Notes under the pieces: generated by a model | Told to the model about the DNA's origin: nothing | Seen by the model: only the letters and a program-made list of their open reading frames with translations | Databases searched by the model: none | Position numbers and translations under genes: made by a program | Assembly: GCA_017992575.1 (NCBI GenBank) | Contig: JAGOOJ010000001.1 | Span: 1-44,158 of the forward strand | Direction: 5' to 3' | From: Candidatus Moraniibacteriota bacterium | GTDB taxonomy: Bacteria > Patescibacteriota > Minisyncoccia > Moranbacterales > UBA1568 | Length of the DNA stretch: 44,158 nt | Shown: positions 1,904 to 30,126 of the stretch, one piece after another | Numbering within the stretch: position 1 is the stretch's first letter | Layout: the number at the start of each line of letters is the position of its first letter

Positions 1904-3010
1904 ATGTTGAAAAAAATTATAGTATTGGTGGGCGGAGCTGTGCTTTTGTCGGGCTGTACGATTACGGTGCCTGGGACAACCCCGATAGTGGACACTGGAA
2001 CTCCGAATGCTTTCAATCAAAAAGTGCAGGCTGGGAGTATGTGGAAAAGTACTGATGGCGGCCAGACCTTTTCCGTGAAGTCACGGGTTGATGAGAAACA
2101 ATCGATAACCAAAGCTGACGTTTTGGCACTTTCTTTTCATCCGACCGATCACGCAACGCTTTATTTTGGGACGGTAGATAACGGAATTTTCAAGACGGTT
2201 GATAGTGGTGAAACATGGCAACAGATTGTTTTTCCACCCAAGAAAATCTATAGTTTTATCTTGGATAAAAATGATCCTGATAAACGAATGTTTGCCTCGG
2301 GGATGCTCAATAACGTGGGAAAGATATTTCGTACCGATGACGGTGGCGAAAATTGGCGCGCCGTTTACACAGAACCAGTAGCTGAAGTCGTTATTACTCT
2401 TTTGGCTCAGCATCCGCGGGATATAAATGTGTTGTTTGCCGGTACGAGCGCTGGAACCGTGGTGAAAAGTACTGATGGCGGAGAAACATGGAAAAATGTA
2501 GGTAACTCTTTGAGTGGGCCTATTACGGAAATAGTATTTGATGCTACTAAACCACTATCGCTGTATGCCCTTTCCTTCAATAGTAAAGTGTACTATTCAG
2601 ATGACGGGGGAGTGGTATGGACTGAGCCAAAGAGTGATCGTACCGATCAAGGGAGTAGTGAAGCTGTTACTCCTGGACCCTTACTCGCATTGGTTGCCGA
2701 TCCAAGTATCTCTGGGCGAGTGTATGGCAGTAAAAGTGGTGGATTGTATCGAAGTAATAATTTTGCCAAAGATTGGGAGAAGATTAATATTATTGAAAGT
2801 GCTGAGAAATCGCCTGTTCGGGCGATAGCTATCAATCCACACGATTCGAACGAAATCGTTTTTGTCGCCGGAAAAGCCTTTTATAAGTCGAAAAATGGCG
2901 GAGAGACCTGGTCAGTGGTTGATCTGTATATAGATCGAAGTGCGTCAGTGCTTATGTATGATCCAAATAATCCACTCACTTTGTATCTGGCTCTTCGTAA
3001 AACTAATTGA
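1904..3010 (+). CDS. BNR/Asp-box repeat beta-propeller lipoprotein (sialidase/Ycf48-like fold)
   Basis: The start was moved to MLKKIIVLVGGAVLLSGC (lipobox LSGC). Six Asp-box motifs (SxDxGxTW) are present: STDGGQTF, TVDSGETW, RTDDGGENW, STDGGETW, SDDGGVVW, SKNGGETW. Confidence 0.8.
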   Translation: MLKKIIVLVGGAVLLSGCTITVPGTTPIVDTGTPNAFNQKVQAGSMWKSTDGGQTFSVKSRVDEKQSITKADVLALSFHPTDHATLYFGTVDNGIFKTVDSGETWQQIVFPPKKIYSFILDKNDPDKRMFASGMLNNVGKIFRTDDGGENWRAVYTEPVAEVVITLLAQHPRDINVLFAGTSAGTVVKSTDGGETWKNVGNSLSGPITEIVFDATKPLSLYALSFNSKVYYSDDGGVVWTEPKSDRTDQGSSEAVTPGPLLALVADPSISGRVYGSKSGGLYRSNNFAKDWEKINIIESAEKSPVRAIAINPHDSNEIVFVAGKAFYKSKNGGETWSVVDLYIDRSASVLMYDPNNPLTLYLALRKTN

Positions 3011-4845: not shown

Positions 4846-4874
4846 TTGACAATTCACTCTTTTTTTGGTAATAT
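4846..4874 (+). promoter_or_regulatory. sigma70-type promoter
   Basis: TTGACA (4846-4851), a 17-nt spacer, then TAATAT (4869-4874). Confidence 0.6.
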
Positions 4875-4902: not shown

Positions 4903-5568
4903 ATGGGAAATCAGTATTTGCTCTCGACGTTGCGCTCGAAAATCGGTACCCTCCTCTTGTGGGGTGTGCTCTTTGGCGCCTTGGGATTCTTTGGTCTCAT
5001 GGTTACAGAGAAGCCATTCCAGACCAAGATGGATTTTTTGGTTGTTCAGACGAACGCTGGAAATCAGGACTTCTATACTCAGTTCAAATCATCTGAGTAT
5101 TTGGGCAACGTGCTGGGAGAAGCGATCTTTAGTGAGCGCTTTGTCAACGCTGTTGTCGAAACAGGTAAAGTCAATGCAGAATTCCTTCCCTTTAATAAGA
5201 AGGACAAACTGAAGGCTTGGAAAGAAATGGTTGCTGTTCAAAAAAACATGGAGCTTGGTATCATCAGCGTGACTGTTTCCGGCAAAAGCGAACGTGAAAT
5301 TTCCCGGACGATGGATGCTATCGCTGTCGTGTTGGCCGAACGCAACAGTCTCTTCCGTGGTGGTGATGAAAAGAGTGTTGAAATTCGTGTGCTCTCCGGC
5401 CCTATTTTGGAACAGAACCCAACTCTCTCCAAGATAGCCAAAGTAGTGATGGCTGCTTTCTTGGCCGGTGTCTTTGTCGCCACTTTCTTTGTGGTCGTCA
5501 AATCGGAACTGCGTCCAGTAGCAGTAGGGAGAGATGATGAGATTCCTTTCAATGAGATGCTGGTCTAA
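4903..5568 (+). CDS. Wzz/YveK-like polysaccharide chain-length determinant (PCP) protein
   Basis: It has an N-terminal TM (LLLWGVLFGALGFFGLMV), then the KPFQTKMDFLV... periplasmic domain and a C-terminal TM (VVMAAFLAGVFVATFFVVV). This is the typical PCP topology. No cognate BY-kinase gene is nearby. Confidence 0.6.
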   Translation: MGNQYLLSTLRSKIGTLLLWGVLFGALGFFGLMVTEKPFQTKMDFLVVQTNAGNQDFYTQFKSSEYLGNVLGEAIFSERFVNAVVETGKVNAEFLPFNKKDKLKAWKEMVAVQKNMELGIISVTVSGKSEREISRTMDAIAVVLAERNSLFRGGDEKSVEIRVLSGPILEQNPTLSKIAKVVMAAFLAGVFVATFFVVVKSELRPVAVGRDDEIPFNEMLV

Positions 5569-5726
5569 ACGACCAATCCCTTGTACTGAGAGTGGCTCAG
5601 TATCCTGGGAAGAGAGCGGTGCGGCGTTATCGTCATCACTGCTTTCTTCCTAGGATTGTTTCGTCCCTGACCTTTAACAATCCAAAGTGTTCAGTTATTA
5701 ACGTTCGACAACCAGAAGGAGTTTCC

Positions 5727-6755
5727 ATGAACTATCGCATCACCCTGATGCTCATTAGTCTGGCAACTCTCGCGGGTTGCACGACGATGGGGTTTGATCC
5801 GCGCCATGATGCCGCCCTGGCACAGGTGCGGGCCACGGCTCCGCAGAGCCAGTCGGCCGAGGACTTGCGCAAGCAGGACCCACGAGCCAGTCTGGCCCTG
5901 CAAACCGATCCCGTGCTGGTCGAAGGGTACATGGTTTTGAGCATTGCGCTCCCAACCTTGTATCCCGAACTCAGTCGGGAAATCGTTGATTCTCGGCAAC
6001 CGTACCTCCGGTATGTTGCCACCAAGATCGAAACCACCGGATCGGCAGTGAATATTACGCTTGAGTGCAAGCCAGGGAAACCTGCCTGCGCCGACATGAG
6101 CGACACTGCCACGACCAAAGTTCCGCTCCATCGCAAGGTGTGGCGGGCTGGGGTCTATGGTTCGGATGGTCGCATCGAGCGTATGTTCGATGCTGTGTAT
6201 CGCCCGCTCCTTCGGCGCTATGTGGTGCTTGTGCCTCTCTCCGAGTGGCCAAGTGTCATAGGCAAAGAAGTACGCGTCCTCTCGGCCTATGGAGATTTCG
6301 CCATCACTCGTGACGGCGGGCTCCAACGGCTACGGGATGGTGAGGTCGCTGTACTTGCCTCTGGCACCGCAAGGATGCCGGTCAAGTACGACGATCTGGT
6401 GCGGATGTCGCCTGACACACCTGGGGGGAAGTACTTCCTTCAGGTGCTCAGTAGCGAATTCCCGCTCCCGGCGCCGTTTCATAGCGGTGTCGCGCATCCA
6501 GACCTCTACCTCGGTGGAGCCAAGTTGACACGTGAAGAAAACGTGCTCGACTGCTGGACGGGGAGAAACGGCGGTGGCACCATTGTCATCACGCCGGTTC
6601 CGCTCCAGACCACTATCACCTTCGTGGGTTCCCTCCTGTGGAACCTCCCGCGCGTGGCGTCACGTGACTGTGGCGTACACGTACCAGGTTCGAAAGGAAA
6701 GGATGAACAACGCAAAGAAGCTACCCCCGGGTCGCTTCCGAGCGACTCACCCTAA
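5727..6755 (+). CDS. island lipoprotein, unknown function (342 aa)
   Basis: The start was moved to MNYRITLMLISLATLAGC (lipobox LAGC). AGGAG lies 6 nt upstream. It is GC3-rich and matches no recognisable family. Confidence 0.7.
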   Translation: MNYRITLMLISLATLAGCTTMGFDPRHDAALAQVRATAPQSQSAEDLRKQDPRASLALQTDPVLVEGYMVLSIALPTLYPELSREIVDSRQPYLRYVATKIETTGSAVNITLECKPGKPACADMSDTATTKVPLHRKVWRAGVYGSDGRIERMFDAVYRPLLRRYVVLVPLSEWPSVIGKEVRVLSAYGDFAITRDGGLQRLRDGEVAVLASGTARMPVKYDDLVRMSPDTPGGKYFLQVLSSEFPLPAPFHSGVAHPDLYLGGAKLTREENVLDCWTGRNGGGTIVITPVPLQTTITFVGSLLWNLPRVASRDCGVHVPGSKGKDEQRKEATPGSLPSDSP

Positions 6756-6773
6756 CCCTTCTAGGAGCAATCC

Positions 6774-8549
6774 ATGAAAAAATTTCTGTGTTTGTTGCTA
6801 CTCCTTCTCGGAGTAGCGAGCGCCCAGGGAGAGCAATCTCATTGGACGTGGCGTCAGATGGTGAGGTCGATTGACGAGCTGCAAAGCCTGCAAAGCGGTG
6901 TTGCTCCTCATCGGTCCATAGTGGCTGGAGTGGTAACGCAATCGGTTTCCACCGTGAGCGTTCCTGCCTCGGCTCCGACGAGCGTTGCCCCGACCACTTC
7001 GGTCCAGACCTTTTCGCTCAAGTCGGGCGAAACGATGAGCGGTCGCTTCGGGAAGCAGGCGCAAGCGATTTGCGCCTACAACCAGATTGCGAATTGCAAC
7101 ATCGTGCAAGCTGGAAAGTCGTATCGGTTGCTAGGCACTGTGCCTCAGGCGACCAAGATGCAAGCCACAGCGCTTCCGCTCACGGCTCACCTCAGTGCTT
7201 CAACGGCATACCTCGACAACGTGTTCCTTTGGGAGCGTGTTGGTGGGGCGCCGCTTCGGAGTTGCGGTAAGCAAGACGTGGCGACGGTCAACGAGAAGGC
7301 GTGGAACGCACTCATCAAACAAGGCCTCCTCACGGAAGCCGAGCGCGATGAACTGCGCGTGCTTACTAAGGGGTTGACGGAACCGAAAATCGGCCATGCC
7401 GACAACGGAACTGTTCAGCTCACACGGGGCATGCGTCTTGAATCGGTGACGTTTTGCAAGGACGGTCAACCGGTGGTGCGTACCAACGTCAAGACGGCCT
7501 GGGATTTCGGTACGGCGGTGTTCGCTCAAGAGTTCACGCTCAAGAGTGGCAAGCGGGTCCTGTGGGTCCGCAACTGCCTGAACTGGTCTACTCGGTCGCC
7601 GCTTCCTCCGCCGGTGGTTGCAGAACCGCCGGTGGTGGTACCTCCTGAAGCTGCGCCGACGCCGACACCCGCTCCGCCTCCGCCTGCAAAGGTGGTGGTG
7701 CCTACGCCCCGTCCGCCAGCCGAGCAATTGGCTTGCGACGAATGGGATGTGCGGGCCAGTGCCGGTGCCGAGCTCTCGCAAGGCGCGGGGACGAGGACGG
7801 TGGCGCTTTATGGCGACGCTGAAGTTGGTACCTGCCCCTTCAAATGGGAGGACAAGGCAGGCGTTTTCAACGAAGCGCTCATCGCCGGTCGGGTTCATGC
7901 GGCAGACGACGCCTGGCGTGGTTGGGATGGCAAGACGGTCACCGCCATGGCTGGTTTCGGTCTCCGGCGGTCGTTCCCGGACGGTTCCATGGACCTGTAT
8001 CGGCTCATGGCCGGTGTGCGGACGAACAATGGGTCGCAAGGCCTGTACTCGCACGACGCGCGCTGGAAAGTGCTCGGCCTCTATGGCACGCATTACCGGG
8101 TCGAGGACGATGGCACGAACGAAACGCACTACCGCTGGGGCTTGAATGTCCACTTCGGGCAGGCCACAGGTTCTGCTTCCTACAGTGGCTCTTCGCTTCC
8201 GCTTCCGCGTTACAACGGCAGTATCGAAGTAGGAGTCAGGCGCTATGTTGATCCGCAAGGTGAAGACATTCGCCGGTTCTGGGAGTTGAACGCAACAATG
8301 GTGTCGCCGGACTATGCTGGCATCAGCCCTCGGGTTGGTGTCTGCAATGGCGATGACACCCTGTGCGGTCTGGTTGGTGTCAACATCGACGTGCAGAACG
8401 GCGGTGTGGCAGCGATGGTTGGTGTCCAGGTCAACACACCTGGGGTCATCCGCTATAACAGGGATGGTCGAATCATGAAGGACGTCGTCGAGGCCGCCAA
8501 GGTCAACGGCACCACCTTCTCGTTCGCGCCGGCCACCAAGCGCAAATAA
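6774..8549 (+). CDS. island secreted protein: signal peptide, LysM-like segment, Pro-rich linker, beta-rich C-terminal domain (591 aa)
   Basis: The signal peptide is MKKFLCLLLLLLGVASAQG. FSLKSGETMSGRFGKQAQAICAYNQIANCNIVQAGKSYRL (aa 79-119) has LysM-like spacing. SPLPPPVVAEPPVVVPPEAAPTPTPAPPPPAKVVVPTPRPP spans aa 275-315. The C-terminal ~270 aa has alternating hydrophobic/polar residues. It starts 18 nt after the lipoprotein stop. Confidence 0.75.
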   Translation: MKKFLCLLLLLLGVASAQGEQSHWTWRQMVRSIDELQSLQSGVAPHRSIVAGVVTQSVSTVSVPASAPTSVAPTTSVQTFSLKSGETMSGRFGKQAQAICAYNQIANCNIVQAGKSYRLLGTVPQATKMQATALPLTAHLSASTAYLDNVFLWERVGGAPLRSCGKQDVATVNEKAWNALIKQGLLTEAERDELRVLTKGLTEPKIGHADNGTVQLTRGMRLESVTFCKDGQPVVRTNVKTAWDFGTAVFAQEFTLKSGKRVLWVRNCLNWSTRSPLPPPVVAEPPVVVPPEAAPTPTPAPPPPAKVVVPTPRPPAEQLACDEWDVRASAGAELSQGAGTRTVALYGDAEVGTCPFKWEDKAGVFNEALIAGRVHAADDAWRGWDGKTVTAMAGFGLRRSFPDGSMDLYRLMAGVRTNNGSQGLYSHDARWKVLGLYGTHYRVEDDGTNETHYRWGLNVHFGQATGSASYSGSSLPLPRYNGSIEVGVRRYVDPQGEDIRRFWELNATMVSPDYAGISPRVGVCNGDDTLCGLVGVNIDVQNGGVAAMVGVQVNTPGVIRYNRDGRIMKDVVEAAKVNGTTFSFAPATKRK

Positions 8550-8833
8550 CTGAACACGGCTTTATTCTCAATGTCGATAAAAACTGCTTACCACCTGTCT
8601 AAAGACAGGGGACGTCCAGCGTATACGTTGGAATGGAGCAAGCAAGACAGAGCGTCATGAACTCATGACGTCACAACGATACGAAAGTATCGGAGTGAGA
8701 AAAGCGAAATTCAGTTCGATAGAGGCGGAGTATCCCACGTGGATGCCCGCCTTTACCCTTTTCTATGACTATTTTAGGTTTTTTTATAAGAATATATGTG
8801 GGGTTGACCACGTCGGTCGCGACCGGTGGTTGA

Positions 8834-8883
8834 CCCTGTGTAATCTGGCTTTGCCTGTCCGCTTGAAGCGGAATTACACAGGG
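8834..8883. promoter_or_regulatory. 11-bp perfect inverted repeat abutting the -35 of the 8884 promoter (operator-like)
   Basis: CCCTGTGTAAT (8834-8844) pairs with ATTACACAGGG (8873-8883). The 28-nt spacer contains the CCGCT-tga-AGCGG hairpin. GGTTGAC(C/A) boxes occur at 8802, 8828 and 8882. Confidence 0.5.
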
Positions 8884-8914
8884 TTGACAAATTCCGTGGA
8901 TATGCTAGTATACT
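8884..8914 (+). promoter_or_regulatory. sigma70-type promoter for the first Cys-rich secreted paralog
   Basis: TTGACA (8884-8889), a 16-nt spacer, then aTGcTAGTAT (-10 at 8906-8911; alternatively TATACT at 8909-8914). An AT-rich UP-like tract lies at 8772-8800. Confidence 0.6.
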
Positions 8915-9052
8915 CTCTCGTTCCTTTTCATAGGTACGCGGGGGGTGATACTCCCAGTGTATCGGCTTATACCATTTTCACGGAGGTGCATGGGCGGTTG
9001 AGACAGTACTCCTGTTTTAACCGCCGAAGGACATCGGAGTTTCTAGGCGGGT

Positions 9053-9093
9053 GGAAGGCTTACTTTCACTCATGCCTTCCTCCTTTTTCTTTC
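9053..9093 (+). terminator. terminator-like hairpin inside the 5' leader of the 9120 gene (possible attenuator)
   Basis: GGAAGGC (9053-9059) pairs with GCCTTCC (9074-9080) and is followed by TCCTTTTTCTTTC. It lies 27 nt upstream of the ATG. Confidence 0.45.
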
Positions 9094-9119
9094 ACCCCTC
9101 AACATCTACAGGGGGCATC

Positions 9120-9935
9120 ATGCGTCGCTTCATTATCAGCATCATCTCGCTTCTCTTCGCTCTCACGGCGGTTCAAGCCCAAGTGCGGGTCAAGGAGAGC
9201 GACAAACCCGTCGGTTCGGTCACGGCGACCGGCGACCTGTCCTACCAGATCGTGGTGGAAAAGACCGGCGTGGTCGTTCGTCTCGATCTGGGTCAAGTCG
9301 TTCCGGCTGAAACACTGGCTTGGGTTGGCAACGGGCGTCAACCAGGCGCTGTGCGAGCGTTCTGCTCGGCCAACCCCGGCATTTGCCAACAACCGTTCCA
9401 CATGTGGTGTGGGAAGGGGCAGAACGCCGAGGTGTGCCGGCAGGTACAGGATGTGAGCATCTCGTGCCACAACCCGGCCAACCAGTCGTTCTGCAGTTCG
9501 CTCGCCTGGGTTCACCGCGAATCCGATGGCGAGATGAACAAGGGCACGCCCTGGGCCGACGATGCAGTCCTCCTTGACTTCTTGGCCGGCAAGACGGTTG
9601 ATCCGACTCTGGTGGAGAACATCCGCAAGTGCACTTACCGTCCGGCAACCTTCGCGGTGGTCTGCGACGTGGTGGTCAAGCCCGAGCAGAAGGGGACTGG
9701 TCGGTTCCAGTCGCACTTCAGTGCCGTCGACCAGAAGACTGGTGTGGTGTACGCCGGTTACCAACCCCAGCGGGTCAAGGCAGGTTCGCATCCGGTGCAG
9801 GTGTACCAAGACGACGGCCAGGGCAATCCGCACCAGGTCATCGGCACAGGTGCCCAGCAGCCTCGCCTCGACCAACCGTCGACTGAAGCCATTGGCTTCG
9901 CCCCGGCCACTCCGGCCTCGGCGCCCAAGAAGTAA
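9120..9935 (+). CDS. island Cys-rich secreted protein, paralog 1 (271 aa, 8 Cys)
   Basis: The start was moved to MRRFIISIISLLFALTAVQA. It is homologous to the 10197 ORF through TG-V-RLD, GIC, CTY...VC, HFSA, YQPQR and GNPH motifs. Confidence 0.75.
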   Translation: MRRFIISIISLLFALTAVQAQVRVKESDKPVGSVTATGDLSYQIVVEKTGVVVRLDLGQVVPAETLAWVGNGRQPGAVRAFCSANPGICQQPFHMWCGKGQNAEVCRQVQDVSISCHNPANQSFCSSLAWVHRESDGEMNKGTPWADDAVLLDFLAGKTVDPTLVENIRKCTYRPATFAVVCDVVVKPEQKGTGRFQSHFSAVDQKTGVVYAGYQPQRVKAGSHPVQVYQDDGQGNPHQVIGTGAQQPRLDQPSTEAIGFAPATPASAPKK

Positions 9936-9956
9936 GCGCCGACAGCGCCTCACTCG

Positions 9957-10013
9957 CCCCAGAAGGGAAGAATCAGTGCAGTGCACGAGATTCTCCTTCC
10001 GGGGCTTTTTTCT
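9957..10013 (+). terminator. rho-independent terminator after paralog 1
   Basis: CCCCAGAAGGGAAGAATC...GAGATTCTCCTTCCGGGG forms a long GC-rich stem with one bulge, followed by CTTTTTTCTT. Confidence 0.8.
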
Positions 10014-10061
10014 TACCTAAAATATGGCTTTTTTAAGCCAATTCTTATAACCACTAGGGGG

Positions 10062-10090
10062 TTGACAGAATCCACGGGAGGGTGTATAAT
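10062..10090 (+). promoter_or_regulatory. consensus sigma70 promoter for paralog 2
   Basis: TTGACA (10062-10067), a 17-nt spacer, then TATAAT (10085-10090). The spacer begins gaATCCacGG, compared with aaTTCCgtGG in the 8884 promoter. Confidence 0.7.
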
Positions 10091-10196
10091 GGTCTATTCG
10101 GTGGGCGTATGCCCCCGACCCAGTTCCTTGTCACTGTATCCAACCGCCTCCCCACTGCTCGCGGGGATCAAGGCTCATTTTGAAGAGGAGAGCACC

Positions 10197-10739
10197 ATGA
10201 AGACGACTTTCAAGCTTTTGGCCATCTCGGCCACTCTGGCTCTGGCCACCCAGGCCATCGCTGCTCCGACTTGCGCCATGCAGGTGACCGGAAACCAGGT
10301 GAAGGTGATCATCGCCGATACCGGCCTGGTTTACCGCTTGGATCGCCAGCAGATCCCGCCGCAGGGCGCCAAGGTCTATACGGGCACTGGCCGTCCCGAC
10401 GTCGACCGCACCGTGTCCTGCAAGGACGCCAATGGCATCTGCGCTGGCGCCAGCTGGTATTTGCGTTTTGCCGACGCACAGCAGGGCTTCCCGGGCGACG
10501 AAGCACTGGCCTCCGACCCGCGCGTGGTGCCCTGCACCTACGACGCCGGCGCGTTGGCCCAGGTGTGCACCTTTACGCTCAACGACGGCATGAAGACCGA
10601 CCGCGGCGAGGTGCGCATGCACTTTTCCGCCAAGGTGGGCGACCAGGTCCCGGCGGCCTACCAGCCCCAGCGCGGTGGCTGCGCGGTCACCAAGGACGCG
10701 GATGGCAATCCGCACACCACCGTCGCCGTCACGCGCTGA
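10197..10739 (+). CDS. island Cys-rich secreted protein, paralog 2 (180 aa, 6 Cys)
   Basis: The start was moved to MKTTFKLLAISATLALATQAIA, with GAGGAG 7 nt upstream. It shares motifs with the 9120 ORF. Confidence 0.75.
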   Translation: MKTTFKLLAISATLALATQAIAAPTCAMQVTGNQVKVIIADTGLVYRLDRQQIPPQGAKVYTGTGRPDVDRTVSCKDANGICAGASWYLRFADAQQGFPGDEALASDPRVVPCTYDAGALAQVCTFTLNDGMKTDRGEVRMHFSAKVGDQVPAAYQPQRGGCAVTKDADGNPHTTVAVTR

Positions 10740-10776
10740 CGCCTCGGCCGCGGCTGAACCCAGCCGCACCAACCCA

Positions 10777-10807
10777 CCCCCGGAACTCAAAATCCCGGGG
10801 GTTTTTT
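10777..10807 (+). terminator. rho-independent terminator closing the island
   Basis: CCCCCGG (10777-10783) pairs with CCGGGGG (10795-10801), followed by TTTTTT. A ~30-nt polypyrimidine tract follows. Confidence 0.8.
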
Positions 10808-10840
10808 CTTTTTCTCCTTTTTCTTTTTCCACTTTTCTCG

Positions 10841-10852
10841 TATACTAAAGGC
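10841..10852 (+). promoter_or_regulatory. -10 element giving a leaderless or near-leaderless SDR mRNA
   Basis: TATACT (10841-10846) is followed by 6 nt (aaaggc) and then the ATG. There is no SD. The same TATACTAAAGnCATG string occurs at 30130-30144. Confidence 0.5.
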
Positions 10853-11626
10853 ATGATTATGGAAACAGTAGAAACGAAAACACAATCGGTCATCCTTATT
10901 ACCGGAGCTACTTCTGGTATTGGTTTGGCATTGGCGCGACTGTTTGCGCGTGATAAACATGATGTGTTTTTGGTGGCGCGTGATGAGGAGCAACTGAAAG
11001 CTGTCCAGAAAGATTTGTCTCAAACATACGAAGTAACGGTCTATTATGCTTGTGGTGATATGACTGACCGACACTTTGTAGCCACACTCCCGGCATTGGT
11101 GCATGAGAAACAGCTGGTGGTTTCCTGTCTCGTCAATAACGCGGGGAGCGGCGTCCAGGGGGCGTTTGCTGAAACCGATTGGGAGAAGGAAATTACCTCT
11201 TTCGAGCTTATTGCCTATGCGCCTACCTATTTGAGCAAAGTCTTTCTATCTGATCTGATTCAGAATCAAGGAAAAATTTTGAATGTTATTTCTACCTCGG
11301 CCTATGCTCCGGGAAATAATATGGCGGTGTACTCGGCTGGCAAAGCCTATCTGTTATCTTTTTCAGAATCATTGTCTCTCGAACTGGCATCACAGGGGGT
11401 CACGGTAACGGCGCTCGTCCCTGGACCGACTCGTACCGGATTTCAGTCAGCCAATGGCCTCGGAGAACTCCCCAGTTGGCGTTTCCCCAGTGCAGAAGCG
11501 GTAGCTTCATTTGGGTACCGGGCGCTTCAAAAAAATAAAACCGTGGCCATTCATGGGCTACGGAATAGACTCAACTATTTGGTTTTGAAATACACTCCGC
11601 GTTTTATCGTGCGGATGTGTGCTTGA
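10853..11626 (+). CDS. short-chain dehydrogenase/reductase (SDR) family oxidoreductase
   Basis: It has TGATSGIG (TGxxxGxG), NNAG and YSAGK (YxxxK). The listed 10271 start is an out-of-frame-overlap artefact across the island. Confidence 0.85.
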   Translation: MIMETVETKTQSVILITGATSGIGLALARLFARDKHDVFLVARDEEQLKAVQKDLSQTYEVTVYYACGDMTDRHFVATLPALVHEKQLVVSCLVNNAGSGVQGAFAETDWEKEITSFELIAYAPTYLSKVFLSDLIQNQGKILNVISTSAYAPGNNMAVYSAGKAYLLSFSESLSLELASQGVTVTALVPGPTRTGFQSANGLGELPSWRFPSAEAVASFGYRALQKNKTVAIHGLRNRLNYLVLKYTPRFIVRMCA

Positions 11627-15233: not shown

Positions 15234-16259
15234 ATGACATCTCTCCAAAAAACTCTGGAACCCAAAAAGTGTCTGGTTTTGGGTGGGGACAGCTTTATGG
15301 GTAGTCATCTCGTCGATGATTTGCTTGCTCGTGGGCATGATGTGCGGGTTTTCGATATTTTTCCTCTGGGTAAAATAAAGAATATTCGTCATCTCAAAGG
15401 AAAAATTCCTTTTTATAAAGGTCATTTATTGGAGCGTTGGCGTTTAGCTCGGGCCCTACGTGGCGTTGACGTAGTGTTTCATTTTACTTCGCTCAGTACC
15501 CCAGCATCAACAGCTCATAATCCTCAGGAAGAAATTCGCTTGAACCTGAAGGGAACGTTGCAACTCTTAGACTTATGCGTTAAAGAAGGGGTGAAACAAA
15601 TCGTTTTTCCGTCTTCTGGGGGTACCGTATATGGCAATGCCTTGGAAGAAGTAGCCAGTGAAACAACGCAGATGCGACCACTGTCGCCCTACGCTGTGAC
15701 CAAATTAACGATCGAGGAGTATCTGCATTTCTATCGCCGTCAGTATGGGCTCGACTTCATCATTTATCGGATTGCCAATCCCTATGGGGAACGACAGGAT
15801 CCTGATGGTATACAGGGTGTTATCCCGATTTTCATGAAACACATGATGAAGGGAGAAACCATCACGCTCTATGGAAATACAGTCCGTGACTATGTGTATG
15901 TGAAGGACGTGACTGGTTTCATAGCGGAGAATTTCAGTCATCCGCATAAGAATACAACCTATAATATTGGGAGCGGTCGGGGAGTGGCGCTGTTCGAGCT
16001 GATCCTCATGCTAGCCAAGACAACCGGATCCATGCCGAAAATCAAACGTTTAGAAAAACGGCCGTTTGATGTTCAAAAAATCGTGCTTGATATTACCCGG
16101 GCGAACGAAGAGTTTGGTTACTATCCTATGACCAGTCTGGAAGTGGGGCTAGAAAAGACATACGTTGTCCTAAAAGAAAAATTGATGCACGAGCCGTTAG
16201 CTCGGACGTCTTGGTTTGACATGGACTTCATTAAGTTCATAAAATGGAACAGGGTCTGA
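15234..16259 (+). CDS. NAD-dependent nucleotide-sugar epimerase/dehydratase (extended SDR)
   Basis: It has the Rossmann motif VLGGDSFMGSHLV and the catalytic motif YAVTKLTIEEY (YxxxK). Confidence 0.85.
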   Translation: MTSLQKTLEPKKCLVLGGDSFMGSHLVDDLLARGHDVRVFDIFPLGKIKNIRHLKGKIPFYKGHLLERWRLARALRGVDVVFHFTSLSTPASTAHNPQEEIRLNLKGTLQLLDLCVKEGVKQIVFPSSGGTVYGNALEEVASETTQMRPLSPYAVTKLTIEEYLHFYRRQYGLDFIIYRIANPYGERQDPDGIQGVIPIFMKHMMKGETITLYGNTVRDYVYVKDVTGFIAENFSHPHKNTTYNIGSGRGVALFELILMLAKTTGSMPKIKRLEKRPFDVQKIVLDITRANEEFGYYPMTSLEVGLEKTYVVLKEKLMHEPLARTSWFDMDFIKFIKWNRV

Positions 16260-16306
16260 TATACCCTGTAAGATGTTCGTTTGTAGAAACCTCAAAGGAG
16301 AGAGAG

Positions 16307-16777
16307 ATGAAGGTTTGTGCTGTTCTCTGTGGAGTACTGCTCCTCGCATCAGGAGCGCATTCGCAGGACGGAGTGGATTCGACGATTTTTGTCCCGAGAC
16401 AGGGCGTCGATCAGGTGCCCATCGAAATCGTCTTTCCGCTCAAGGAGCATAAGGACGCTTATGCCAAAGCGGTGGCTCTTCGGCGTCTGATTGAACGTCG
16501 TTTGCGTCCCCAGCGAAACGGTGATGGGCGTTCGTATTTGGGCAAGTGCATGGTTGAACCCTACCAGCTCGAGCTGGGGTTGGCCACACTGCGTATCGAA
16601 TGTTGGTCGTTAGGCCTCTGGCCAGGCGACGAGGCCTTAGCCGCTATCGGTGCTCCGGAGACGGTAGAAGAAGCCATGGTCTTCATCGAGGCCTTTCTCG
16701 CCAAGCATCGCGAGCGTTTGGCTCGGCCGGTGCCACCTCCAGCGCCTACGCGTTCCCAGATGGTCCGCATGGCCTGA
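16307..16777 (+). CDS. small GC-rich secreted ORFan (156 aa)
   Basis: The start was moved to MKVCAVLCGVLLLASGAHS (signal peptide), with AGGAG 6 nt upstream. G+C is visibly higher than in the flanking genes. The C-terminus is Pro-rich (PVPPPAPT). Confidence 0.65.
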   Translation: MKVCAVLCGVLLLASGAHSQDGVDSTIFVPRQGVDQVPIEIVFPLKEHKDAYAKAVALRRLIERRLRPQRNGDGRSYLGKCMVEPYQLELGLATLRIECWSLGLWPGDEALAAIGAPETVEEAMVFIEAFLAKHRERLARPVPPPAPTRSQMVRMA

Positions 16778-27426: not shown

Positions 27427-28842
27427 ATGCCTTCGCTTCATCTATCGCGCTTCAAACACGTTCATATGATCGGTATCAAAGGTGCCGGTATGACCGCTTT
27501 AGCAGAGTTTTTGTTACGGCAGGGTGCACAAGTGACTGGGTCTGATACGGACGAGATCTTTTTTACCGATGCTATTTTGCAACGTTTGGAGATACCCGTA
27601 AAACACCCTTTTGCTGTAGAAAATATTCCTAAAAAAGCTGATATAATCATTTATTCTACTGCTTACACCAAAGAGCAGAATCAAGAATTGGCGGGGGCGT
27701 TCGTTGTCGGGGTTCCGGTTTTGAGCTATCCTGAGGCACTTGGTGCTTTGACAGAGGAAAAGTTAACGTTGGCGGTGTGTGGTACTCATGGTAAAACAAC
27801 CACCAGCGCTCTTTTGGCAGATACGCTTGAATACTGTGGCAAGAACCCTTCTGCTATTGTGGGGAGTCGGATAATGAGTTGGGGAGGAAATTCCCTTTTC
27901 GGTACGGGAGAGTATTTGGTAATCGAGGCCGATGAATATCAGAATAAACTTGCTCAGTATCAACCATTTGCGGTCATTCTTACGAGTATTGATTTTGATC
28001 ATCCGGATTACTTTGTTGATAGAGAAAGTTATGAACAGGTGTTTTCAGATTTTGTTGCCAAAATTCCAGCGCATGGGATACTTGTGTATTGTGCTGACTC
28101 TGCAGCTGTAGCTCGTGTGGCAACACGGGCTCGCTGTCGTACGGTGTCTTATGGCACGTTGGCGCCGGCGGATTTTCAAGTTATTGAATACACTCCGGAG
28201 AAAATAGGATTTCTTTCCGAAAAGGAAATGATCTGCCAGTCTTTCTCTGTCATTCATCAAAACGAAAAGAGAGGGCCGTTTCGACTCAAATTAGCGGGTG
28301 TTCATAATGCTCTCAATGCCACTGCTGTTTTGGCACTCCTCTCAACGCTCGGGGTAGAAGCGACTCGCTTGAAGGCTGGCGTAGAACGGTTTACCGGAAC
28401 AGAACGTCGCTTTGAATATATTGGTGAACGGTACGGAGCGCTCCTCTACGATGATTATGCTCATCACCCAGAAGAAATTAAAGCGACTCTGCGAGCGTTT
28501 CGAGATTTATATCCGAACAAGAGATTAACCGCTTTGTTTCATCCTCATACGTATACCCGTACTAAGGCACTTCTTTCTGATTTTGCACAGAGTTTCGATG
28601 AGGCTGATCGGGTGATTATCCTTGATATCTATGGCAGTGCTCGAGAAGAACAAGGCGGGGTTACTTCACAAGACCTGGTGGACCAAATTCAGCGTTATTT
28701 TCTCGGTAAAGCTGAAGTGGCACATGACACGAGTATTCTGACTACTGAATTAGAGAAGACAATGGGTCGACAAGATGTTATTATTACGCTTGGAGCTGGG
28801 AATGTATGGGAAATATCCCATACATTGGCTCGGGCAAAATAA
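27427..28842 (+). CDS. murC: UDP-N-acetylmuramate--L-alanine ligase
   Basis: It has IGIKGAGMTALAEFLLRQGAQVTGSD, the GTHGKTTTSALLA P-loop and YAHHPEEIKATL. Confidence 0.9.
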   Translation: MPSLHLSRFKHVHMIGIKGAGMTALAEFLLRQGAQVTGSDTDEIFFTDAILQRLEIPVKHPFAVENIPKKADIIIYSTAYTKEQNQELAGAFVVGVPVLSYPEALGALTEEKLTLAVCGTHGKTTTSALLADTLEYCGKNPSAIVGSRIMSWGGNSLFGTGEYLVIEADEYQNKLAQYQPFAVILTSIDFDHPDYFVDRESYEQVFSDFVAKIPAHGILVYCADSAAVARVATRARCRTVSYGTLAPADFQVIEYTPEKIGFLSEKEMICQSFSVIHQNEKRGPFRLKLAGVHNALNATAVLALLSTLGVEATRLKAGVERFTGTERRFEYIGERYGALLYDDYAHHPEEIKATLRAFRDLYPNKRLTALFHPHTYTRTKALLSDFAQSFDEADRVIILDIYGSAREEQGGVTSQDLVDQIQRYFLGKAEVAHDTSILTTELEKTMGRQDVIITLGAGNVWEISHTLARAK

Positions 28843-28858
28843 TTGGATTTTTCATCAT

Positions 28859-29785
28859 ATGTTTCTTCGAGAAAATATTCCACTCGCGCCACTATCGACA
28901 TTTCAGGTTGGTGGCACGACTCGGTACTATACGGAAGTGTCGGGTGCTCTGGAACTAGCAGAAGCGTTCGAATATGCAGAAAAGCACAAACTCCCATATT
29001 TTGTTTTAGGAGGAGGGAGCAATATTTTGTTTGCCGATCAAAGATTTGAAGGTCTCATTATTCATATGGTGGGCGGAAGTGTGAATACAACGGGTGAGAA
29101 AGTGGTCGCTAGCGCTGGTGTCCCTCTTGCTCGGGTAGTTCAGAGAGCTCAGGAAGCTGGGTTGGCAGGCATAGAAAAATTGGCTGGTATCCCAGGTTCA
29201 TTTGGTGGCGCTATTCGAGGCAATGCTGGAGCCTTTGGGGTAGAGATTGGCACCCTGGTACTTTCAGTGAAAACATTGGATCGCTATTCTGGTATGGTGC
29301 AGGAGCATCGACAGGAAGGGTGTAACTTTCAGTATCGAAACAGTCTTTTTAAACGGAATCCGAAGCTGGTAGTTCTTTCGGCTGAGCTCCAGTTGGAGCC
29401 CGGTGATACAGTAGCCCTGAAGCGTGTTATGGATGAGACTATGGCTATTCGTGAGTCGAAACATCCTCAAGATGCCAAGTGTGCTGGATCATTCTTTATG
29501 AATCCTCTCGTAAAAGATGAACAGTTACTGAAGGAATTTGAAAAGGATACGGGGAACACCTCGAAGGATGGTAAACTGCCGGCCGGTTGGCTCATCGATC
29601 ATGTCGGATTGCGAGGGAAAAAGATCGGAGGGGCACAGGTCAGTCCAATTCATCCGAATTATCTTTTGAATACTGGGACAGCTACAGCACGTGATATCGT
29701 GATGTTGGCGAGTTTGATCAAAACGCGGGTCCGAGACGAACTTCATGTACGGCTCAAGGAAGAAGTACAGTTCGTTGGATTTTAG
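28859..29785 (+). CDS. murB: UDP-N-acetylenolpyruvoylglucosamine reductase
   Basis: The start was moved to MFLRENIPLAPLSTFQVGGT. It has GGGSNILF, IPGSFGGAIRGNAGAFG and SKHP motifs. Confidence 0.9.
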   Translation: MFLRENIPLAPLSTFQVGGTTRYYTEVSGALELAEAFEYAEKHKLPYFVLGGGSNILFADQRFEGLIIHMVGGSVNTTGEKVVASAGVPLARVVQRAQEAGLAGIEKLAGIPGSFGGAIRGNAGAFGVEIGTLVLSVKTLDRYSGMVQEHRQEGCNFQYRNSLFKRNPKLVVLSAELQLEPGDTVALKRVMDETMAIRESKHPQDAKCAGSFFMNPLVKDEQLLKEFEKDTGNTSKDGKLPAGWLIDHVGLRGKKIGGAQVSPIHPNYLLNTGTATARDIVMLASLIKTRVRDELHVRLKEEVQFVGF

Positions 29786-29821
29786 GTTCTTTAGGATGTT
29801 GGATCGGAAAGCGAGGTAGAT

Positions 29822-30058
29822 ATGAGAGCATTGCTACAATGCTTTCGGTGCGGAGTACAACTTTCGGTCATTTGTTCTGCCTGGGAGTATGGCTCCTATT
29901 GCTCCGAGTGGTGTAGTAGTCAGCCTAAGGGCAGACAGGAGGTCTTAGCGGCTGGTGCTGATACACAATCCTCAGACGATGCTGGCATGAATGCTTTTCG
30001 TCGTGGACAACTTCAGCTTGACGCTGGCGATCCGCAAGAACGCCAGTTGGTCGATTGA
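29822..30058 (+). CDS. 78-aa ORFan with an N-terminal CxxC...CSxxC zinc-ribbon (TRASH/YHS-like) motif
   Basis: It has C7-x2-C10 and C27-x3-C31 (YCSEWC), followed by an acidic, disordered-looking tail. It is GC-elevated relative to murB and hpf. Confidence 0.45.
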   Translation: MRALLQCFRCGVQLSVICSAWEYGSYCSEWCSSQPKGRQEVLAAGADTQSSDDAGMNAFRRGQLQLDAGDPQERQLVD

Positions 30059-30126
30059 GGCTTTTTGTAAGCGGGTTTCTTGGATAAGAGACACGCTTTT
30101 TTCTTTGTTCCCATAGCAAACAGATG

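Follow-up and report, generated by a model that had tools for sequence, protein, structure and literature searches.

Loci that encode variable surface proteins, such as surface-layer (S-layer) genes and the genes of major outer-membrane proteins, are marked by strong promoters and terminators, by long leaders, by biased codon use and by recombinant mosaics. Several described surface systems place a β-barrel in company with wall-binding or export components. Inverse autotransporters consist of a signal peptide, an N-terminal LysM domain and then a 12-stranded barrel (PMC4943183), while OmpA, and OmpM and SlpA of the diderm Terrabacteria, carry in one chain a domain that binds the wall, a spacer and a barrel (PMC10628300, PMC9388160). 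Composite translocons in which an outer-membrane polysaccharide export (OPX) protein works with a β-barrel are also known (PMC9601211, PMC9603273, PMC12819527). The Candidate Phyla Radiation (CPR) is regarded as being without an outer membrane (10.1101/2021.05.31.446380; PMC12102498), and loss of the OmpM system has been reported for a monoderm clade that includes it (10.1101/2021.05.31.446380). Here we analyzed a contig from the metagenome-assembled genome of a Candidatus Moraniibacteriota bacterium (JAGOOJ010000001.1), whose phylum is treated as monoderm (10.1101/2021.05.31.446380; PMC12102498; PMC8871954). The window analyzed is the entire contig of 44,158 bp, and the subject is a block of four genes at positions 5569-10810 that encodes exported proteins, one of which is predicted to end in a barrel.

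All four genes of the block lie on the forward strand. ORF A (5727-6755) encodes a predicted lipoprotein of 342 residues with the lipobox LAGC; ORF B (6774-8549) encodes 591 residues with a signal peptide ending in ASA before QG; ORF C (9120-9935) encodes a secreted, cysteine-containing protein of 271 residues with a signal peptide ending in VQA before QV; and ORF D (10197-10739) encodes a secreted protein of 180 residues with six cysteines and a signal peptide ending in AIA before AP. Directly upstream is the gene of a Wzz-like membrane protein of the short polysaccharide co-polymerase (PCP) type (4903-5568, forward strand; 221 residues), which has the G+C content of the backbone. A preliminary description, made from the letters of the window, had read the block as an abrupt, foreign high-G+C island of exported ORFans inserted into a surface-glycan locus. 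The export signals, one lipobox and three AxA-type signal peptides, were confirmed. We consider it probable, however, that the Moranbacteria inherit the block vertically, as a native and fast-diversifying module of their cell envelope, and that it is not an acquired island. The components of the module are the Wzz-like membrane protein, lipoprotein A and protein B, together with small secreted proteins that number one to four (C and D in the window). We are confident that this envelope module is native and that its proteins are exported, exposed, rapidly diversifying and in part anchored to wall and membrane; a surface or host-interaction role is plausible.

Searching through protein B, we found 13 loci (L001-L013), several of them truncated. 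L001-L006 come from independent assemblies of other samples, L007-L009 are from more remote family members and L010-L013 from four GTDB species representatives. A common gene order was held by L001-L007 and L009-L013, in which a BNR lipoprotein gene, frr, rseP, the Wzz-like gene, an A-like lipoprotein gene, B and one to four small ORFs were followed by glycan genes, among them Wzy_C and GT4, with SDR and WecG in many loci. L008 carried the core of Wzz-like, A and B genes beside other glycan genes. The neighbors of the block in the window (Wzy_C, GT4, WecG and an epimerase) agree with its earlier placement among envelope-glycan genes. B homologues at the shared site were 31-90% identical. Additionally, using the Wzz-like protein as the query against metagenome contigs, we obtained 31 loci, and in all 19 that had at least 2.5 kb of downstream sequence a B-family gene lay approximately 1-1.3 kb after the Wzz-like gene. 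Neither the 13 B loci nor these 19 Wzz-like loci contained an empty site or the uninterrupted Wzz-like-to-SDR junction that an insertion had led the preliminary description to look for in relatives. The named B-family members were Candidatus Moranbacteria, and none of the family members examined stood outside the Moranbacteria-type gene order. The four proteins are not ORFans: relatives encode homologues of each, and a LysM domain is present in B. Homologues at the same locus in relatives, which the preliminary description had itself named as an argument against its reading, were largely what we found, with B traced down to 31% identity.

Some side observations concern the loci themselves. The full Moranbacteria-type order (serS, BNR, frr, rseP, Wzz-like, A, B and onward) was present in a metagenome-assembled genome labeled Undibacterium sp. 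(L007; GCA_041730415.1, JBGSBW010000017.1) and in two labeled uncultured Bdellovibrionales (L011, CAYRWQ010000016.1; L012, CAYOHD010000010.1). These labels reflect either mis-binning or mislabeling, or co-abundance with Gram-negative organisms. Upstream of frr, the window encodes a BNR/sortilin-type lipoprotein with the lipobox LSGC (1904-3010), and this gene was kept near the module in most loci that reach that far upstream.

The composition of the block differed clearly from that of the contig, as the sliding-window G+C, third-position G+C (GC3) and tetranucleotide checks proposed earlier revealed. Its G+C content was 59.0%, versus 46.1% in the remaining window, and 5.2-kb windows outside it (n = 285) had a mean of 0.460 (standard deviation 0.016) and a maximum of 0.499. 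Composition-normalized tetranucleotide usage correlated at 0.48-0.63 between block and backbone, versus at least 0.67 among backbone segments. GC3 was 0.65 in A, 0.68 in B, 0.76 in C and 0.85 in D, compared with 0.37-0.60 in backbone genes. The abrupt high-G+C block described earlier was therefore recovered, although hand counts had exaggerated the contrast, as the backbone is close to 46% and not 40%. It is, however, not one continuous high-G+C block. The spacers (5569-5726, 8550-9119, 9936-10196 and 10740-10852) had a backbone-like G+C of 0.47-0.53, 0.498 overall, and the excess was limited to the coding sequences.

Approximately half of this excess came from amino-acid composition (+0.056 to +0.073) and half from the choice of C-ending codons (synonymous share, +0.069 to +0.130). 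The block proteins were enriched in Ala, Pro, Val, Gln, Thr, Cys, Gly and Arg and depleted in Ile, Leu, Glu, Phe and Lys. In C and D, NNC, GGC/GGT and CGC/CGT codons were favored and A-ending, CGA and AGR codons were shunned; third codon positions of D were 52% C and 2% A. Such a pattern resembles translational selection on highly expressed genes more than uniform G+C pressure. Moreover, the B gene exceeded its own backbone in G+C in 26 of 28 loci (mean 0.57 vs 0.49), both where the backbone was at 36% and where it was at 57%. Synonymous sites were saturated between the window and distant loci; since the excess persists at such sites, the signal appears to be maintained and not to be the relic of a donor, whose surviving composition would not produce a coding-only excess that recurs in 26 of 28 loci. 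The lack of enrichment in the spacers makes a foreign block a poor explanation. We also considered region-wide GC-biased gene conversion as the source of the excess and rated it as less likely for the same reason. Taken together with the native-module reading, and with the same degree of belief, the high G+C is probably a property of the coding sequences that selection has kept across the whole lineage.

Genomic G+C in the lineage spans a wide range. L004 has the same gene order and backbone proteins 47-75% identical to those of the window at a backbone G+C of 0.57 (0.46 in the window), and loci L038-L040 have a backbone of 0.38; the module lies at approximately 0.57-0.62 in most members. Elsewhere in the window, an ORF of 177 residues with no recorded family (16244-16777) also exceeded its neighbors, with a G+C of 0.57 and a GC3 of 0.59; its first 16 nt are shared with the end of the epimerase gene.

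The comparison of close strains (L001, L002, L003 and L006) revealed how fast the block changes. Backbone proteins in these strains were 99-100% identical to those of the window, save for a few flank genes, whereas identities in the block were 87-92% for A, 62-90% for B, 94-95% for C and 70-78% for D. In L002 and L003, nucleotide identity was mosaic: 53-57% in bins over 6751-7500, the first half of B, and 98-100% from 7751 on, the second half of B and the next spacer, with the B middle domain swapped for a different allele. The ratio of non-synonymous to synonymous divergence (dN/dS) was 0.13-0.30 in the block, reaching 0.68 for B against L002, compared with 0-0.07 in most backbone genes, and dS was 0.17-0.45, compared with 0.01-0.18. 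Within the species, the spacer of B at residues 20-76 was the most variable part of the protein and the barrel the most conserved. This mosaic divergence, with raised dN/dS and dS on a near-identical backbone, argues for recombination and diversifying selection and points to the module as a recombination hot spot of the kind expected of exposed proteins that meet hosts or phages. The host-interaction or adhesion role suggested earlier is therefore plausible, as within-species hypervariability fits it, while the foreign origin attached to that idea is rejected. We also observed an unusually divergent SDR gene in L006 (11382-12152; dS 0.29, dN 0.057) and an unusually divergent Wzz-like gene in L001 (3089-3754; dS 0.36); recombination tracts seem to reach beyond the four block genes in individual strains.

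The variability does not appear to come from a diversity-generating retroelement. No repeat longer than 31 nt and no template/variable pair of that type was found in 5000-11500, nor was a reverse transcriptase family found among the annotated genes of the window and its neighbors, so that the block is not indicated as a target of such an element.

The near-consensus promoters and strong terminators noted in the preliminary description were confirmed, and the block is self-contained in this sense. D is preceded by a consensus promoter, TTGACA-17-TATAAT, at 10062-10090 on the forward strand (12 of 12 matches), followed by a leader of approximately 100 nt with no unusual structure (z -0.32). The control region of C (8802-8911, forward strand) is more elaborate; it contains three copies of the repeat GGTTGAC[CA] (8802, 8828 and 8882), a perfect 10-bp palindrome, GGTCGCGACC, at 8815-8824, and a 19-nt inverted repeat (8833-8851/8866-8884) that abuts the -35 hexamer of the promoter TTGACA-16-TAGTAT (8884-8911), from which the leader runs for approximately 205 nt. 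From its sequence, this arrangement looks like an operator or a set of multiple promoters. Intrinsic terminators on the same strand, each followed by a U run, were found after C (9955-10016; -29.7 kcal/mol, z -5.8) and after D (10770-10812; -16.1 kcal/mol), and a promoter-like site lies upstream of the Wzz-like gene (4846-4874).

C and D are paralogous (BLASTP E 2e-10) and share the promoter-proximal motif GGGTTGACA.AATCC (8881-8895 and 10059-10073) and the terminator motif CCGGGG(C/G)TTTTTTCTT (9999-10014 and 10795-10810; repeat D9). These common motifs around promoter and terminator (repeats D9 and D13) make a tandem duplication of the whole cassette of promoter, gene and terminator probable. 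L004 and L010-L013 contain D-like orthologues with 50-55% identity, and those in L010-L013 keep an upstream TTGACA-N17-(TG)TATACT, also written TTGACA-N17-TGTATACT, with a leader of approximately 100 nt. Promoter strength and codon bias suggest that C and D are highly expressed. The block thus has in common with variable surface-protein loci its strong promoters, long leaders, terminators, codon bias and mosaics on a clonal backbone.

Protein B, the largest of the block, begins with a signal peptide and a variable spacer, continues with a LysM and a middle domain and a proline-rich linker, and ends in a predicted barrel with a short C-terminal tail. The LysM-like domain was placed by the family profile at approximately residues 77-120 (7002-7133). 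Against the PDB, the B-family profile matched Ecp6 when built from 11 sequences (2.6e-6) and LytE when built from 47 (1.1e-17); 24 of the 47 family members matched Pfam LysM (PF01476), with window B alone falling below the threshold, and NCBIfam returned only LysM-type matches for the 47. The middle α/β domain (residues 151-277; 7224-7604) was defined from the alignment and from a single AlphaFold2 model based on 11 aligned sequences. In this model, its per-block confidence (predicted local distance difference test, pLDDT) was 43-89, low at residues 203-210 only, and the N-terminal spacer was of low confidence. The linker (residues 278-322; 7605-7739) is predicted to be disordered, with pLDDT below 50, and many family members have a proline-rich stretch at the corresponding position.

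A profile search of 1.84 billion representative proteins returned 44 matches at E ≤ 1e-30 and 174 at E ≤ 1e-10; many of the weaker matches were LysM-only proteins. Approximately half of the B family has a cleavable signal peptide, and in approximately one third a cytoplasmic tail precedes a membrane helix, which would tether the protein at the cytoplasmic membrane and project the barrel outward. In some relatives, the Wzz-like gene is directly preceded by an extra gene for a LysM protein that is anchored in the membrane and has no barrel (L021, 1964-2866; L022, 2076-2978; L010, 3-695; L013, 2308-3072; L024, 3608-4330). Paralogous to the N-terminal half of B, this extra gene also encodes the B middle domain in L021 and L022, and it is absent from the window.

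The predicted 12-stranded antiparallel β-barrel occupies residues 323-556 of B (7740-8441), with 35 residues after it. The model showed twelve long antiparallel strands at approximately residues 325-554, with a per-block pLDDT of mostly 74-92. In Foldseek searches of the PDB, the best matches were the autotransporter β-domains of Hbp, BrkA, NalP, AIDA-I and EspP (E 4e-7 to 1e-5, target TM 0.36-0.55), and weaker ones were intimin (4e1s, E 1.2e-4), FapF, OmpG and porins; the best matches in the viral library BFVD were again autotransporter β-domain proteins. Hydrophobic and polar residues alternated in strands 8-12 across the 47 sequences, and two of the 47 reached PF13505 (OMP_b-brl). An outer-membrane-type barrel, as modeled here, is surprising in a phylum regarded as single-membraned. 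No BAM/Omp85 gene was found among the annotated genes of the 44-kb window, which is the only part of the genome available. In the literature, we found no joint mention of Moranbacteria and LysM, and Moranbacteria and the outer membrane were mentioned together only in a review of prokaryotic phyla.

We compared B with the described systems and found that it resembles several of them in part. Inverse autotransporters (type Ve: intimin, invasin and YeeJ) have the same order of LysM and 12-stranded barrel, the latter being predicted in B; their superfamily includes passenger-free, barrel-only forms, and the intimin barrel is itself a fold match. In contrast, B has approximately 200 residues (middle domain and linker) between LysM and barrel and only its short tail in place of a C-terminal passenger of Big domains, and it belongs to a phylum considered to be without an outer membrane and the β-barrel assembly machinery (BAM); no match to PF11924, Big_1 or Big_2 was found by Pfam among the window proteins and the 47 family members. 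Classical autotransporters (type Va) provide the best fold matches and likewise have a C-terminal barrel with the variable part N-terminal to it, as with a passenger. However, neither window B nor any of the 47 family members matched PF03797, or TIGR01414 in NCBIfam; a disordered proline-rich linker stands in B where those proteins have a pore-filling α-helix, and the would-be passenger is LysM with a small α/β domain and not a β-helix. Family members that appeared to be barrel-only, mostly fragments of full-length proteins, also gave no Pfam match. With OmpA, OmpM and SlpA, B shares the union of wall-binding domain, spacer and barrel in one chain; its wall-binding domain, however, is LysM and not SLH or OmpA_C, its barrel has 12 strands, and the domain order is reversed relative to OmpA. 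As each of these autotransporter and tether systems has sequence signatures, and several defining features, that B lacks, we did not assign B to any of the three.

Because the barrel is a prediction, it may be an artefact of modeling; B would then be a LysM-anchored wall protein with a β-rich C-terminal domain, similar to an S-layer protein or adhesin, and the block an ordinary variable surface-protein locus of a monoderm. The shallow alignment of 11 sequences behind the model, the failure of window B to match outer-membrane families by sequence, the restriction of clear amphipathic alternation to strands 8-12 and the monoderm description of the phylum (PMC12102498) all speak for this explanation. 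We nevertheless regard it as unlikely, as the pLDDT is high over most of the twelve long strands, Foldseek gave a probability of 1.0 for many independent 12-stranded barrels in two libraries, and two family members match PF13505.

The linkage of the Wzz-like gene, A and B raises another explanation, in which the three products act as a PCP, an OPX protein and a β-barrel translocon to export or attach the polymer made by the neighboring Wzy_C, GT4 and WecG proteins. Six of eight members of the Wzz-like family weakly matched PF02706 (Wzz; best 8.2e-6), all below the curated cut-off, and the C-terminal part was weakly Wzc-like (E 0.046). Since a B-family gene follows the Wzz-like gene in every locus with enough downstream sequence, the latter belongs to the module by linkage, despite its backbone composition. 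The invariant linkage beside glycan genes makes the glycan-export role a serious rival; adjacent PCP-like, lipoprotein and barrel genes in a glycan locus are what the composite translocons show (PMC9601211), and PelBC and PgaA-type barrels were among the weaker fold matches. However, the Wzz similarity is below the Pfam threshold, and A has neither OPX domains (no Poly_export or SLBB match) nor a fold match. Furthermore, the barrel is autotransporter-like with 12 strands, compared with 18 in the described translocons and 16-18 in polysaccharide porins, a single-membraned cell needs no outer-membrane channel, and the hypervariable N-terminal half of B and the biased C and D genes would be left unexplained. 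On balance, we find this role decidedly doubtful.

Protein A itself fell into seven homologue clusters, all from this lineage, and C into three. None of the proteins A-D of the window matched a Pfam or PHROG family. No PDB match was found for A by sequence or fold, and its AlphaFold2 model was poor (pLDDT 49), with a meaningless best Foldseek E of 0.12; a PDB sequence search with D also gave nothing, and A, C and D showed no sequence or fold relation to any described S-layer or pilin family. A ends 18 nt upstream of B and overlaps it in L004. In L007, the A-like gene is split into ORFs of 68 (9025-9231) and 202 residues (9259-9867), possibly through a frameshift or as a pseudogene.

A third explanation is the one originally proposed, that the block is an island gained by horizontal transfer from a donor that was rich in G+C and probably diderm, and that it entered between the Wzz-like gene and the SDR gene. 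It is consistent with the strong G+C and tetranucleotide deviation, with a barrel fold typical of diderm bacteria and with the block having its own promoters and terminators. We consider it very unlikely. As the preliminary description had already noted, no integrase or transposase family was found among the neighboring genes and no direct repeats flank the block; nor is there an adjacent tRNA target. Rfam at the gathering score found two distant tRNAs only, the nearest at 1602-1676, and a relaxed Rfam search of 5400-11000 gave a single miRNA match, attributable to chance. The occupation of the same site in all relatives examined without an empty site, the coding-only excess beside backbone-like spacers and the persistence of that excess at saturated synonymous sites all argue against an acquisition, and with no examined family member outside the Moranbacteria-type order, only a very ancient, basal transfer could be accommodated. 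That the contig is a chimera, joining a G+C-rich fragment of another organism to a Moranbacteria contig, is suggested by nothing except the abrupt change in composition and has a negligible probability, because both junctions were reproduced in L001, L002, L003 and L006, assembled from other samples (SRR34217543, JGI 3300056625, SRR26424591 and SRR31521331), with flanks of 90-100% nucleotide identity, as well as in more distant relatives.

Several points also weigh against the native-module reading that we favor and against the role that we attach to it. The present distribution would also be compatible with a transfer that took place long ago, at the lineage's base. The barrel depends on one AlphaFold2 model with an overall pLDDT of 64, and sequence-level matches to outer-membrane families were confined to PF13505 in two of 47 members; as CPR bacteria are considered to have no outer membrane, the barrel has no known membrane to occupy. 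No recognizable fold or family was found for A, C, D or the middle domain of B. The high expression of C and D is a deduction from their promoters and codons, and the window carries no ribosomal-protein genes by which codon preference could be calibrated.

Under the native-module reading, we propose the following arrangement. As their signal peptides show, all four block proteins leave the cytoplasm through Sec. The lipobox suggests that a lipid anchor fixes A to the cytoplasmic membrane, on its outer face, and family-level homology suggests that B binds the cell's own peptidoglycan through LysM. The proline-rich linker may then carry the predicted barrel to the distal side of the wall, and in the approximately one third of the family with an uncleaved N-terminal anchor, B would span the envelope. 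The barrel would be the outermost anchoring or pore element, situated in an unrecognized outer layer, in the membrane of a partner cell or in a surface layer, and C and D may be abundant surface subunits. In its boldest form, this proposal holds that a whole CPR order has at a fixed core locus the gene of a protein that spans the envelope, is anchored at the cytoplasmic membrane or the peptidoglycan by a membrane helix or LysM, and ends in a genuine outer-membrane-type 12-stranded barrel. Either these cells have an unrecognized outer lipid layer, or the barrel lodges in a Gram-negative host's outer membrane and serves there as a pore for attachment or uptake; the hypervariable N-terminal half of B and the abundant C and D proteins would tune partner specificity. 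We put this form forward tentatively, as a possibility that the odds do not favor.

Outside the module, an ORF of 336 residues (28775-29785) occupies most of an apparent 1.3-kb non-coding gap (28843-30123). We read it as murB on account of its sequence and because murC precedes it.

The locus adds to the known surface systems a new, lineage-wide protein family, undescribed until now, in which LysM, a proline-rich linker and a predicted 12-stranded barrel occur with fixed partners, together with a G+C and codon anomaly that is confined to genes and maintained. In a reduced genome, such an anomaly can be a maintained property of native genes, which calls for caution with island predictors. The hypervariable alleles are a marker for strain-level interactions with hosts or phages. 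If the barrel is real and inserted in a membrane, the family would bear on the nature of CPR envelopes and on how putative episymbionts attach to their hosts and draw resources from them.

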